Source of the DNA: Candidatus Heimdallarchaeota archaeon
Lineage (GTDB): Archaea > Asgardarchaeota > Heimdallarchaeia > Heimdallarchaeales > Kariarchaeaceae
Direction: 5' to 3'
Assembly: GCA_030149205.1 (NCBI GenBank)
Contig: JASBSB010000003.1
Coordinates: 1-32,000, forward strand
Length of the DNA: 32,000 nt
Shown: positions 12,032 to 17,150 of the stretch, piece by piece
Numbering within the stretch: position 1 is the first letter of the stretch
How the letters are laid out: every line of letters begins with the position of its first letter
The notes under the pieces: generated by a model
What the model saw: only the letters and a program-made list of their open reading frames with translations
The model's database searches: none
Told to the model about the DNA's origin: nothing
Translations under genes and position numbers: made by a program

Positions 12032-14035
12032 CTAGTTTTCTGAATTAATCCCTAAGTTTCTAAGAAATGCTTTGTTATTGGGCTCTCTTCCCAAGAATTT
12101 TTCAAGAAGTTCCTCTTCATCAAATTCATTCCCAGGTTCTAGTATAAATTTTCTATAATCGTGACCTACAGCTGGATTATCAGGGGATGTATCTTCAAAT
12201 CTAGTGTACATATCTTGAGCAAAGACTTTACTCCACATATAACCATAATACCCAGCATCATATCCACCCATTAGATGACCAAATGCAGCAGCACCATTTG
12301 CACCTTCCAATTCTGGAATCAAAGTCACCTGTCTTTTAAGTTCTCTCCAAGTTTTTCCGGTGTCCTCAATTTTCTCTGTATGAATCTTCATATCAAACAA
12401 TCCAAAGAAAATTTGCCTTAAATTACCTAAACCTGTCAACGAATGTCGGGCTTTGATCATTTTTGTGATCAATTCGTCAGGCAAGGGATCACCAGTATCT
12501 TTATGCTTAGAAATTCTCTTCAACACAGATGGTTCCCAAATCCAGTTTTCTAGCATTTGTGAAGGAGCCTCTACAAAGTCCCTAGCAACTGATGTCCCGG
12601 AAAATTCAACATATTTTGATTGTGAGGTGGTTTGATGAATGATATGACCAAATTCATGAAACAGGGTTATTACCTGTCCATGAGTTAATAAGGATGGAGC
12701 ATCTTCTGTAGGTTTATTAAAATTACATACCATTGCTGAAGCGGTGGGAACTCTTTTTTGGTCTTCATATCTCTCACGAAGCAACGTAAAAGCTGCAGCA
12801 TGGTTGTATTTCCCTTCGCGGGGGAACAGGTCTAAAAAGAACACCCCTAAAAATTCACCGCTATCCTTGTCTACAATACTATAGGAGATTACATCTTGAT
12901 GCCAGGTTTCGATATTCTCGATTTGTTTAAAATTAAAGCCAAGAACTTGCTGATAAAACTCTAACATTTGATCAACTACGTAAGTAACAGGAAAATATCC
13001 CTTTATCACTTCTGGATCCAAGTCATAATTTCGTTCGTTGTATATTCTTGAATAATATCCTTGTTCGTATGACTGAATCTCAAGATCTGTATCTACTCCT
13101 TTTTCTTCTTTTTTGAGTGCCTTTAAAGCATCTAACTCCTTTTCTCCCAAAGGTCTAAGCTTGTTTCGTAAATCTTTTAGAAAGTCCATCACATTATTTG
13201 GATTTTTAGCCATATTGACCTCTTGAACAAATGCAGCATGATTTGGATACCCCATAAGCTCTGCCATCTTCCATCTGTTTTGAAGTGTCTTTTCTAATCT
13301 TTCAACGTTTCCCTGTGCCATTCCTCTCTTTGCATATTCCTCATATAATCTTTTTCTGGTTGTAGTATTTTTTGCGTATTGGAATATTGGACCGACCTCA
13401 GGGTAAGATAGTCCCACCAAATAATTACCATCTTCATCCTTTTGATATAATGATTTTGCGGTGTCTGGAACTCCATCTATTTCGGACTCTGAAAAGGTCA
13501 ATTTCACATCTATGTTATACAGAGCTTGACTGTATTCAACTGACATTTTGACGTTTTCCTCTTTGAGCTTTTTAAGTTGATCTCTGATATCCTCAGATAA
13601 ATCTAATCCAGACCTTCTTAGGTCTCTTATGACCCTGTCTAGTAATCGCAATTGAAGCCTGTCTAACTTTGGATTACTGTTCTTGTAAACCATTAATTTG
13701 TCATAAAGTTTCTTGTTCAGATAGAGAGAGATATAATATTGACGTAGTTCTTGATTTGCTTGGGCTGATGCATCTCTTAATGCTTTATCCTCTGCCACAT
13801 AAGCTAAAAATCCTGATGACGCAGTGTTGTCACTTGCCATTGCTGATAACCTCTCCAACTCTAATACCGTATTTGAGAAGGTTAGCTTAGAATCATCGGT
13901 TTGTAATATCCCCTCTATGATTTTATCACCTTCTTTTATCGTATCCTCTGTAATTTTTTTTACGTCCTCAGGTGATAAATCCCATCGAAGTTTACTTCTA
14001 ATTGGTTGTAAATTATCTTCTAACTTACTTTCCAT
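12032..14035 (-). CDS. M3A metallopeptidase, thimet oligopeptidase/neurolysin-like
   Basis: Zinc motif HEFGH, DFVEAPSQMLENW, LDLFPREGKYNHAA and GYDAGYYGYMWSKVFA; 667 aa; no signal peptide. Confidence 0.95.
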   Translation of the reverse strand: MESKLEDNLQPIRSKLRWDLSPEDVKKITEDTIKEGDKIIEGILQTDDSKLTFSNTVLELERLSAMASDNTASSGFLAYVAEDKALRDASAQANQELRQYYISLYLNKKLYDKLMVYKNSNPKLDRLQLRLLDRVIRDLRRSGLDLSEDIRDQLKKLKEENVKMSVEYSQALYNIDVKLTFSESEIDGVPDTAKSLYQKDEDGNYLVGLSYPEVGPIFQYAKNTTTRKRLYEEYAKRGMAQGNVERLEKTLQNRWKMAELMGYPNHAAFVQEVNMAKNPNNVMDFLKDLRNKLRPLGEKELDALKALKKEEKGVDTDLEIQSYEQGYYSRIYNERNYDLDPEVIKGYFPVTYVVDQMLEFYQQVLGFNFKQIENIETWHQDVISYSIVDKDSGEFLGVFFLDLFPREGKYNHAAAFTLLRERYEDQKRVPTASAMVCNFNKPTEDAPSLLTHGQVITLFHEFGHIIHQTTSQSKYVEFSGTSVARDFVEAPSQMLENWIWEPSVLKRISKHKDTGDPLPDELITKMIKARHSLTGLGNLRQIFFGLFDMKIHTEKIEDTGKTWRELKRQVTLIPELEGANGAAAFGHLMGGYDAGYYGYMWSKVFAQDMYTRFEDTSPDNPAVGHDYRKFILEPGNEFDEEELLEKFLGREPNNKAFLRNLGINSEN

Positions 14036-14096
14036 TATTTAGTATCTTCCTAGAATTTAAAAAAGTACTGAAAAGGCGAATGTTAGAATTAGATAT

Positions 14097-14630
14097 TTAA
14101 AGTTGAGATTTTGATATTTCTTTAACCAATGTAGTAAACACATCATTAATTCTTGACCCCATGACAGCAGAGGTTTCAATATAGTGACAAGGAACCTGAA
14201 GCTCTGAAGATATCTGCTGTCTTAGTTGTAATGCGACTGTTGGTAGCACAATTCTCTTACTTTCAAGGTCTGATTTGTTGCCAACCAATAGAATTGGAGA
14301 GTATAATTCTTGAAGTCTAATTTCTTCTATCCATGTTTCCAGTTTTCTGAATGAATCTAAATTTGTAATATCGTACACCAAAATTATTCCCTTTGTCCCC
14401 TTGTAATAGAGGTCCCTAATAGATTGAAAGGTGTTATGACCAGCAAGATCCCAAATTTGTAGTTCATAGTTACCAAATGGTTTAACATCAAAGTCAGCCC
14501 CAATTGTTGGGTTATATGAGATAGAAAAGGTTTCATTTATGAACCTCTTACGAATACTTGTTTTACCAACAAATTTGTCTCCTAAGAGGATGATTTTGAA
14601 GAGTTCTTTAGAAGAGGAGGATGCAGTCAC
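14097..14630 (-). CDS. Rab-like small GTPase (Ras superfamily)
   Basis: G1 GDKFVGKT, G2 TIGADF, G3 WDLAGH, G4 GNKSD and G5 ETSA; RabF-like segments IGADF, ELQIW, YYKGT and LVYDIT; GTG start; no C-terminal Cys. Confidence 0.95.
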   Translation of the reverse strand: MTASSSSKELFKIILLGDKFVGKTSIRKRFINETFSISYNPTIGADFDVKPFGNYELQIWDLAGHNTFQSIRDLYYKGTKGIILVYDITNLDSFRKLETWIEEIRLQELYSPILLVGNKSDLESKRIVLPTVALQLRQQISSELQVPCHYIETSAVMGSRINDVFTTLVKEISKSQL

Positions 14631-14657
14631 TGTACTCGTTTACTTTAGCATACATCC

Positions 14658-14665
14658 TTTATAAA
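14658..14665 (-). promoter_or_regulatory. Archaeal TATA box for the Rab-like gene
   Basis: TTTATAAA ending 27 nt upstream of the GTG start, which implies a very short or absent 5' UTR. Confidence 0.5.
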
Positions 14666-14943
14666 TATTATTAGCTTGACATGTTACTTATTCTTAAAAA
14701 ATTGGAAGGATTCACATTATTTTAATGGATTTTTGACAAATTTACAAAAATTTAATTATCGATAAATTAATTTTAATTTAGTGTACACAAAGAACAAAAA
14801 ATCTCTGTTCTTATCGTTTTATTCATTAGTTTTGGTGACTGAATTAGTTGTTTTCCATATTGATAATTAAATTTTGTAAAGAAAAAAGGATTACAACTAC
14901 ACTTAACTCTTAAAGTTTTTTAATAGAATGGTGAATTTAACGT

Positions 14944-15708
14944 ATGAGTTGGACTAGAGAGATTACAGTCGATTTATGGCGGACCTCAACACATAGTGTG
15001 AACATTGGTATAAACAAACAAGAGCAGTTAATGTCAAAATCTCGACAATTTACCAAAGATACTGAGATTATAGGTGAGATATCTGAGAAGGGTGAAACTA
15101 CAGGATACGTAACTTATCGAAAAGATCAGTGGGATTCCAGTGAAGAAAAGCGGTTAGTTATAAAGATTTTTTCCGATTCTATAGGTTGGAAATCATCTAT
15201 GGAAGAGTTACATGCTCGAGAATTATCACAGAGTTTTTCGATAAACGAGGCTCTACCAATGTTTTCTACAAATATAAATAGGCTTGATTACTTGTTATTA
15301 ATTGAAAAAGTTCATCTTGGAGTTAGTTTCAATCAAGAGAAATATGTCTGTTTCTTGATCGATGACAAAACTGGGGAAGGAATGCCCATTCAGTTGGTTT
15401 CTGAAAGGATTTCAATAGGAGGTGACTGGTATGTCCTGGATCACCATGGAAACAAAATTGCAGAGATAGATGGAAAAAGCTTCAATATTGGCGGGAAATA
15501 TGTGATTAGGATGATTGACAACCTAGGTGTCTTTGAAAGAGAGTTAGTGGAAATTCTTGTGTTATTTGCCACATATTTAAAATTTAAAGATGAAGTGGAG
15601 AAGGATATAATGGAGAAGATCAAGCAACTAAGGCAATCAGAGGGAAATATCAAGGTGGATCCTGATGAATTAGCGCTTTATAGAAACCCTCGACGCATAA
15701 AAGTCTAA
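14944..15708 (+). CDS. Tubby C-terminal-like / LURP-one / scramblase-fold protein
   Basis: Beta-strand-rich soluble protein. IQLVSERISIGGDWYVLDHHGNKIAEIDGKSFNIGGKYVIRM fits the LURP-one repeat pattern and is followed by a hydrophobic helix (ELVEILVLFATYL), as in the barrel-filling helix of this fold. Confidence 0.55.
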   Translation: MSWTREITVDLWRTSTHSVNIGINKQEQLMSKSRQFTKDTEIIGEISEKGETTGYVTYRKDQWDSSEEKRLVIKIFSDSIGWKSSMEELHARELSQSFSINEALPMFSTNINRLDYLLLIEKVHLGVSFNQEKYVCFLIDDKTGEGMPIQLVSERISIGGDWYVLDHHGNKIAEIDGKSFNIGGKYVIRMIDNLGVFERELVEILVLFATYLKFKDEVEKDIMEKIKQLRQSEGNIKVDPDELALYRNPRRIKV

Positions 15709-15777: not shown

Positions 15778-16683
15778 ATGGAACATCTTGTATCTATAAG
15801 AGATATTACAAAAGATGAAATTGAGAAATTAATCAATCAAGCACTTCGGATTGAAAAAAATCCTAGTGAATTTGTTGGGAGACTAAAAGGTAAAATCCTT
15901 GCCACTCTGTTTTATGAGCCAAGTACCAGAACTCGACTCTCCTTCGAATCTGCGATGTTAAGGTTAGGAGGTAATGTTCTTGGGTTTGCTGACGCAAAAA
16001 TTAGCTCAGTTAAAAAGGGGGAATCTATCGCAGATACAATTCGTATGGCTGCATCCTATAGTGACATCATAGTTCTAAGACATTTTCTTGAGGGAAGTGG
16101 CAGAGTTGCAACCGAATTTAGTGATGTACCTGTCATAAGTGGTGGAACAGGAATTCAAGAACACCCCTCACAAGCCCTGTTAGATGTGTACACTATCTAC
16201 AAGCATTTTGGGAGGCTTTCTAATCTCAAAGTAGGATTAGTCGGAGATTTAAGATATGGTCGAACAATTCCTTCTCTGTTATACACACTCGCAAAATTTG
16301 ATAATAATGTTGTATATCTATTCTCTCCGCGTGAGCTAAGAGTGAGAATGAGTGTAATGAATGACATTCAAAACAAACTTGAGGTTCATATTGGTGAAGA
16401 CCTCGATAAACATATCGACAAGCTGGATTTAATATATGTTACAAGAGTTCAAAAGGAAAGATTTCCAGATGAGGCAAGTTATGAGCGTGTTAAAGATTTC
16501 TATGTGATCGATAAGGACACGGTTTCTAAGGCAAAGGATGACTTTATAATCTTACATCCACTTCCAAGAGTCAATGAGATAGCTTATGAGGTGGATAAAA
16601 CACCTTATGCAAAATATTTTGAGCAGGCGAAAAACGGAGTCTGGATGAGAATGGCTCTTCTTTTGACCTTGTTGGAGGAATAG
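15778..16683 (+). CDS. pyrB: Aspartate carbamoyltransferase catalytic subunit
   Basis: FYEPSTRTRLSFE, KKGES, HPSQALLD, GDLRYGRT, TRVQKER and HPLPR. Confidence 0.98.
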   Translation: MEHLVSIRDITKDEIEKLINQALRIEKNPSEFVGRLKGKILATLFYEPSTRTRLSFESAMLRLGGNVLGFADAKISSVKKGESIADTIRMAASYSDIIVLRHFLEGSGRVATEFSDVPVISGGTGIQEHPSQALLDVYTIYKHFGRLSNLKVGLVGDLRYGRTIPSLLYTLAKFDNNVVYLFSPRELRVRMSVMNDIQNKLEVHIGEDLDKHIDKLDLIYVTRVQKERFPDEASYERVKDFYVIDKDTVSKAKDDFIILHPLPRVNEIAYEVDKTPYAKYFEQAKNGVWMRMALLLTLLEE

Positions 16684-16685
16684 TT

Positions 16686-17150
16686 ATGAAGACAAATGAG
16701 ATGTTAGTTTCAAAAATTAAAGAGGGAACAGTTATTGACAGAATTCCTGCTGGAAAGGCATTGAAATGTGTCAGTCTACTAAAAGTCGAAGAAGACCCTA
16801 AAACTATAATTACTATCGGAATGAGGGTACATTCAGATAAAGTAGGTATGAAAGATATTGTCAAAATTCATGGGAGATTTTTAACCGAAAATGAAAAAGA
16901 TGCACTTGCACTGTTTATCCCTGGGACAATGATTAGTTATATTGAAGATTACAATGTTTCGAAGAAAGAGTATTTAGAGACCCCTGATGAGGTCACTGAT
17001 GTTTTAGTTTGTAACAACCCCACATGTGCAACAAATTATAGAGAACCAGTAGTTACCAAATTTACAATTATGCAGAAAGAACCCATACTTGCAAGGTGTT
17101 TGTACTGTGACCGTGTAATGTTAGAAAAAAACATAATGGATCAGTTTTGA
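16686..17150 (+). CDS. pyrI: Aspartate carbamoyltransferase regulatory subunit
   Basis: GTVID(R)IPAG, KDIVKI and Zn ligands CNNPTC and CLYC; starts 2 nt after the pyrB stop. Confidence 0.96.
   Translation: MKTNEMLVSKIKEGTVIDRIPAGKALKCVSLLKVEEDPKTIITIGMRVHSDKVGMKDIVKIHGRFLTENEKDALALFIPGTMISYIEDYNVSKKEYLETPDEVTDVLVCNNPTCATNYREPVVTKFTIMQKEPILARCLYCDRVMLEKNIMDQF

Follow-up and report, generated by a model that had tools for sequence, protein, structure and literature searches.

What can a small GTPase do when a histidine stands where the Ras superfamily carries its catalytic glutamine? The question is raised by a gene of a Candidatus Heimdallarchaeota archaeon (genome G000) located within the window, by which we mean the whole 32,000-nucleotide stretch of DNA analysed here. 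A preliminary description had pictured its product as a Rab-like protein with a Q61H-equivalent and a bulky P-loop, acting either as a slow, mostly GTP-bound switch or together with a GAP that supplies the catalytic residue in trans.

The gene, its motifs and its paralogues

The gene, its motifs and its neighbours are located as follows.

12032..14035, (-) strand: M3 (thimet-type) oligopeptidase gene (Pfam Peptidase_M3, E 5.7e-134)
14097..14630, (-) strand: Ras/Rab-like small GTPase gene (ORF with GTG start, 177 aa)
14163..14171, (-) strand: G5, S-A-V (within ETSAV), SA being residues 154-155 (S154 invariant, A155 nearly so)
14268..14279, (-) strand: G4, NKSD, residues 118-121, guanine specificity (N118, K119 and D121 invariant)
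14433..14453, (-) strand: switch II / G3, WDLAGHN, residues 60-66 (pattern match G000:C7:14436-14456)
14436-14438, (-) strand: His65 codon CAT (reverse complement of ATG), read from the sequence
14505..14507, (-) strand: switch I Thr42 (equivalent to Ras T35), a column invariant in the alignments
14559..14582, (-) strand: P-loop (G1), GDKFVGKT, residues 17-24, K19 and F20 corresponding to Ras G12 and G13
14658..14665, (-) strand: TATA-box-like TTTATAAA, 28 nt upstream of the GTG start, read directly
14944..15708, (+) strand: gene of a 254-aa Tubby/LOR-like barrel protein (from the fold match of its predicted model, and synteny)
15778..17150, (+) strand: pyrB and pyrI, marking a conserved gene block (Pfam OTCace_N/OTCace and PyrI/PyrI_C)

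The database copy of the GTPase (P0002) agrees with the ORF in both length and start, and its highest-ranking Pfam profile was Ras (PF00071; 143.3 bits, E 6.5e-42, curated cut-off 21.6), followed by Roc and Arf (Arf E 8.4e-17). The protein carries the full G1-G5 set (GxxxxGK[ST], the switch I Thr, DxxG with D61 and G64, NKxD and SA), while the catalytic Gln that follows DxxG in the Ras superfamily is absent and replaced by His65. This Gln is frequent, not universal, in the superfamily. In HMMER alignments His65 was found opposite the catalytic Gln of Rab1A/Rab1B and, in a chain mutated from Q to L, opposite the Leu. Hence, the ORF translation and the Rab1 alignment bear out what had first been read from the DNA: a switch II of WDLAGHN with its His codon at 14436-14438, and a GDKFVGKT P-loop in which Lys and Phe correspond to Ras G12 and G13.

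The Rab-like character proposed at the outset was upheld by both sequence and structure. The best PDB sequence matches were Rab1A/B, Ypt1 and Sec4 (E ~1e-31), and an AF2 model built from 50 relatives (pLDDT 93.1) had Rab1b, Rab6 and Rab10 as top structural matches (TM 0.8-0.86), the best 50 of these matches being eukaryotic Rabs throughout (TM 0.75-0.87). By eye, five RabF-like segments were recognised (IGADF, ELQIW, TFQSIR, YYKGT and LVYDIT), for which the Rab consensus is IGVDF, KLQIW, RFRSIT, YYRGA and LVYDIT. The GTPase is thus Rab-like in sequence and fold. Its C-terminus (...EISKSQL) ends directly after the last helix, its sole Cys is C148, and the prenylatable C-terminal Cys motif and hypervariable tail of Rabs are absent from the sequence. 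This agrees with the earlier remark on the missing Cys and tail. No membrane anchor is visible, and the trait is general among archaeal Rab-like proteins, which lack C-terminal Cys and hypervariable tail (PMC4915359).

In phylogenetic trees this single-domain protein, devoid of a lipid-anchor motif, nests among Asgard Ras-like sequences with no supported sister, and its nearest relatives in the database search were Kariarchaeaceae, Hodarchaeales and Heimdallarchaeota proteins. Judged by its sequence, it belongs both to the Ras superfamily and to the Asgard RasL group (a term of Klinger et al., here in the sense of 10.1101/2024.02.28.582541).

In the host genome, an assembly of 12 contigs totalling 3.3 Mb, 27 matches to Pfam Ras were counted, and the unusual residues could be set against those of the paralogues. 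The residue after DxxG is Gln in ~18 of them and His in a single one (the 14097-14630 gene); the rest have Asp (1; L015), Glu (3; L017, L018 and L020) or Arg (2; L024 and L027), or are degenerate at this position (1). At least seven paralogues besides the present gene are thus without Gln at this site. The degenerate one, L022 (345 aa), has GVGRT as its P-loop and a G3 that has likewise degenerated, and it looks like a pseudo-GTPase. None of the ~23 Ras-like paralogues whose motifs were read carries the Gly-Gly pair of Ras G12/G13, typical P-loops being GDGAVGKT, GDPMVGKT and GDARVGKT. Since non-Gly P-loops are normal in this genome, the argument from Ras G12/G13, on which the preliminary description drew, does not transfer. 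What is particular to this GTPase is the K-F pair, found in it only among the 265 proteins collected.

The genomic slot and the origin of the histidine

Three genomes of the same genus (G001, G002 and G003) and two public assemblies share one gene order: M3 peptidase (-), GTPase (+), 254-aa gene (+), pyrB (+) and pyrI (+). The flanking genes of G000 are those of its congeners, and the GTPase gene is inverted, so that it shares a strand with the peptidase gene. The M3 oligopeptidase gene lies 61 nt downstream of the GTPase on the same strand (the two being divergent in the congeners), and the 254-aa gene is divergent from the GTPase in G000, while in the congeners it starts 56-66 nt downstream of a co-oriented GTPase of the Gln type. 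No convincing inverted repeats, as scars of an inversion, were found flanking the GTPase gene. Going by the usual layout of archaeal promoters, the TATA-like box would be a putative promoter of the GTPase gene; its 28-nt spacing is what a leaderless or short-leader transcript of an archaeon would call for. The 313 nt that separate the divergent GTPase and Tubby-like genes also contain an AT-rich palindrome (AAAATTTAATTATCGATAAATTAATTTT; 14747-14774) and an 18-nt inverted repeat (14858-14875; 94% complementary, 93 nt between its arms), which may be a regulatory site or may reflect chance in AT-rich DNA.

The 254-aa protein had no match in Pfam. Its model (pLDDT 76) found its best folds in At5g01750 (Z 10.2), a LURP-one-related protein, and in a PIP2-bound C-terminal domain of Tubby (Z 9.8), with all other chains at Z <=7.5, so that a Tubby/LURP-one-like barrel is predicted. 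The family comprises ~11 database clusters, all of Heimdall type, and in the gene contexts of its more distant homologues no adjacent GTPase was seen. Therefore, the adjacency of the two genes is a matter of gene order within the genus rather than a conserved module, and may simply be inherited. A complex prediction of the GTPase with the 254-aa protein, GTP and Mg scored 0.00, which is uninformative either way.

The slot GTPase of the congeners (L066:3374-3934 in one of them) reads GDARVGKT...WDLAGQK, with Gln at the catalytic site, and is 41-43% identical to the G000 copy, where ~70% or more would be expected from the following identities of the block.

pyrB: G000 vs G001, 74%; G001 vs G003, 82%
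pyrI: G000 vs G001, 60%; G001 vs G003, 75%
254-aa gene: G000 vs G001, 47%; G001 vs G003, 64%
GTPase: G000 vs G001, 41%; G001 vs G003, 81%

The slot GTPase is usually as conserved as pyrB, and the G000 copy is ~2x more diverged than expected. The closest G000 matches to the congeners' slot GTPase are 41-44% identical and include the 14097-14630 gene; a closer counterpart was not found elsewhere in G000. Conversely, the best matches of our GTPase in the three same-genus genomes (42-43% identical) are orthologues of other paralogues, and its best database match beyond itself is 46% identical, which leaves it with no close homologue.

The trees, which comprise archaeal-type sequences only (140 rows, and a careful version of 74 rows), gave the GTPase a branch of 1.26-1.51 (medians 0.54-0.73) and no supported sister; in free trees it was not sister to the slot GTPases. 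The AU test rejected neither a clade joining it to them (delta lnL 9.9, p 0.26) nor one joining it to the His-type proteins P0007/P0010/P0018 (delta lnL 5.3, p 0.37). Given this unstable position and the long branch, in-situ orthology with the slot GTPase stands only as a candidate reading, and from the Gln of the congeners it follows that the His is either lineage-specific or was brought in by a replacing paralogue. In the preliminary description, Gln in the orthologues, as a sign of a sequencing error or a private mutation, was named as an outcome that would refute its reading. A sequencing error is very unlikely, but the positional counterparts in the congeners do have Gln, so that this refuting outcome came about in part.

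Under the second of these origins, an older His-type paralogue lineage would have replaced the slot gene in inverted orientation, and the His would be inherited, not newly acquired. The highest identities of the GTPase (42-46%) are indeed with His-type proteins of Kariarchaeaceae and Hodarchaeales, the AU penalty for the clade with P0007/P0010/P0018 is the smaller one, an inversion is compatible with insertion, and the same-family genome G004 has a His-type gene elsewhere together with a non-His GTPase near the 254-aa gene. Against this, replacement requires a loss and an insertion at exactly one intergenic slot, none of the three same-genus genomes (completeness 82-89%) has a His-type gene, the His-type gene of G004 sits in unrelated surroundings (RIO kinase, AHSA1, TetR), and grouping with the His-type lineage was unsupported in every free tree. 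On balance we consider replacement unlikely, though worth keeping in view. An AHSA1 query from this G004 neighbourhood had no match in G000, G001 and G003. In the same genome, a GTPase gene (G004:C205:4101-4604, (-) strand) located 1.5 kb from the 254-aa homologue contains one in-frame TGA and may be a broken copy or carry a sequencing error.

By parsimony of position, we favour accelerated divergence in situ, with a Q-to-H change, over replacement by a paralogue. With Gln in the congeners and a gene that is inverted and ~2x diverged, His65 and K19/F20 would represent lineage-specific remodelling and not family traits.

Recurrence and possible role of the histidine

A DNA pattern for IWD[LIFM]AGH had 18 matches in 17 of 400 Asgard genomes (11 of 85 genera), all of them inside small-GTPase ORFs with a P-loop, and the reversed-pattern control had 0. 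Within the order (41 genomes) five His-type genes stand against 672 Ras-like matches (~0.7%), and many of the nearest database relatives of the GTPase likewise read WDLAGH. Across Asgard small GTPases, as far as the single pattern IWD[LIFM]AGH covers them, the oddity singled out in the preliminary description is therefore sporadic but recurrent. On the tree, at least four origins of the His fall on well-supported (starred) branches, and nine are counted by parsimony; with at least four changes on supported branches, the His arose repeatedly. A limited search of the literature on Asgard GTPases found no mention of His-type members.

Gly at the Ras G12 position was found in 0 of the 18 genome pattern matches, and in the collected set it is missing from 18 of 19 His-type proteins vs 45 of 111 of the Gln type. 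On supported branches this coupling of His with a non-Gly P-loop amounts to four independent pairs, too few for power, and hence it remains a lead. No conserved partner was found beside the His-type relatives P0003 and P0004, whose gene contexts differ; the two small ORFs downstream of them are mutually unrelated and had no convincing Pfam match.

One His-type lineage (L075, L076 and L077 from G014, G018 and G016, respectively, together with P0054/P0056) has a C-terminal extension of ~120 aa ending in ...LSFLEE or ...LSFLDD. Its motifs are GEPLVGKT or GERLVGKT and WDLAGHD or WDLAGHV, and it was found in all three genomes of one family belonging to the same order as the host. Many long proteins, probably of eukaryotic origin, also came up in the profile search (P0122-P0130 and others). 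Each carries between two and six Rab-like G domains in tandem, and in some the residue following DxxG is His, Lys, Ser or Leu.

How, then, might this GTPase work? That Q61H impairs hydrolysis in Ras, as the preliminary description had it, is true of KRAS, both intrinsically and with a GAP (PMC8560773). In Sar1, His79 occupies the position of Ras Gln61, and the H79G change lowers the rate of Sec23/24 GAP-stimulated hydrolysis (PMC2150902). Since Sar1 His79 works with a GAP, we reason that a natural His in the catalytic position need not disable the protein. SRbeta and the translational GTPases, too, make use of a His that follows DxxG. Considering that the residue has become fixed again and again in proteins whose binding residues are all retained, we take it to be most likely a working, partner-oriented one; the GTPase would then most likely be a working switch with altered, partner-dependent hydrolysis. 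We envisage a functional switch that has kept its binding of guanine nucleotide, and in which His65 would stand in for the water-orienting Gln as Sar1 His79 does; intrinsic hydrolysis would be low, and a partner would have to orient His65. An arginine finger of the RasGAP style appears unlikely because of the non-Gly P-loop (K19/F20). No candidate GAP emerged from the analysis. Taken jointly, an intact and selected RasL GTPase with a lineage-specific catalytic site, operating as a working switch with a partner-oriented His, is the best explanation that we can offer, and we put it forward tentatively, as plausible rather than probable.

Its main rival is the slow, mostly GTP-bound switch of the preliminary description: His65 and K19/F20 would abolish efficient hydrolysis, leaving a constitutively 'on' switch or a scaffold whose output is set by expression or nucleotide exchange and not by a GAP. 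The behaviour of KRAS Q61H speaks for it, as do the uniqueness of the K-F pair and the presence in G000 of paralogues with D, E, R or a degenerate P-loop, which makes hydrolysis-poor forms seem tolerated. The working His of Sar1 weighs on the other side, Gln-type paralogues too mostly have non-Gly P-loops, and repeated fixation of His in independent Asgard lineages fits a working residue better than random loss. We hold this rival to be distinctly unlikely.

The working, partner-oriented reading could also be widened from the single protein to a group, with the His-type Ras-like GTPases forming a recurrent, convergent Asgard class that is non-Gly at G12 and uses a partner-oriented His in the manner of Sar1, SRbeta and EF-Tu. 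In this broad form we regard it as very doubtful. If true, it would imply an Asgard GAP mechanism distinct from arginine-finger GAPs, with the present GTPase as the most extreme member.

With the downstream operon severed by the inversion, relaxed selection might have let the gene drift towards loss, and the odd catalytic residues would then be early decay; divergence ~2x that expected from the neighbouring genes, the unique P-loop and the long terminal branch speak for such a course. Yet the reading frame is uninterrupted, and none of the residues that are invariant in the family or bind the nucleotide has been lost. Among ~46 columns that are >=80% conserved in 50 relatives, the GTPase departs from consensus at 3, which is the set median, its fold is confidently predicted, and the TATA-like box is properly spaced from the start. 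Where the protein diverges, it does so at variable positions and at the catalytic site, a pattern more in keeping with a selected protein of changed function than with decay. We therefore view decay as highly improbable; from the evidence of its sequence the gene looks intact and selected.

The codon itself was followed in reads with a mixed outcome. In the probable source run (which is no independent evidence for codon 65) a 190-kb contig with a word depth of ~75 has zero differences from the window. A hydrothermal-vent metagenome from another study (run X2), which is independent, yielded fragments of the locus at 95-99% identity and ~4x depth, and thus a close strain exists outside the source sample. 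Its fragments span 13900-14157, 14552-14749 and 14837-15000, with codon 65 outside them and the P-loop <=30 nt from a contig end, where differences go unlisted. Although the codon is thereby seen in one assembly only, the chance that it is a sequencing or assembly error is practically negligible, given the depth of the source contig and its complete match, the same His in 17 further verified GTPase genes, and a divergence that is spread over the whole protein and not confined to one base.

Significance and comparison with known systems

The small GTPases of Asgard archaea are investigated as forerunners of eukaryotic trafficking switches. One diverged paralogue among ~26 in G000 is, alone, no major surprise and a modest curiosity. 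The recurrence of the His together with a mostly non-Gly P-loop nevertheless provides a defined set of proteins for testing Sar1-like hydrolysis by a partner-oriented histidine against the alternative of Gln plus an arginine finger, and the GTPase and the Gln-type slot GTPase of its congeners constitute a ready natural pair for comparison.

With the Asgard RasL ('Rab-like') GTPases the protein shares a single G domain of ~180 aa, RabF-like segments, a short C-terminus without prenylation Cys, and membership of a genome with many paralogues (27 Pfam Ras matches in this case). A sequence match was also obtained to the Thorarchaeota Rab (PDB 7EZB, PMC10933270; E 1.6e-26). It departs from the RasL group by the His after DxxG, the unique K-F P-loop and the long branch.

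Among eukaryotic proteins, Rab1/Ypt1, Sec4, Rab6 and Rab8 provide the best sequence matches and, at 32-38% identity, the best structural matches, and segments resembling their RabF motifs are recognisable in the GTPase by eye; in published phylogeny, Asgard sequences specifically sister to Rabs were not found (10.1101/2024.02.28.582541). Unlike eukaryotic Rabs, the GTPase has a beta2-beta3 hairpin shorter by 4 residues, lacks the C-terminal Cys and hypervariable tail, carries His in place of the catalytic Gln, and reads K-F instead of S-G in the P-loop.

Sar1, of the Arf family, has a G3 of the form DxGGH. The GTPase is similar to it in having His directly after DxxG, the residue needed in Sar1 for Sec23/24-stimulated hydrolysis (PMC2150902), and differs by a G3 of DLAGH, without Gly-Gly, and by a Pfam Arf score far behind that of Ras (E 8.4e-17 vs 6.5e-42). 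No N-terminal amphipathic helix of the Sar1/Arf type was evident by eye in its N-terminus (TASSSSKELFK). The weak Arf profile, the DLAGH motif and this lack of an evident helix rule out membership of Sar1/Arf; the likeness of the His is convergent.

KRAS Q61H shows the identical residue change at the same structural position. In KRAS the change is an acquired mutation, and the protein around it is adapted to Gln and to the arginine finger of RasGAP, whereas the His of the GTPase is natural and fixed, in a protein whose P-loop is already without both glycines.
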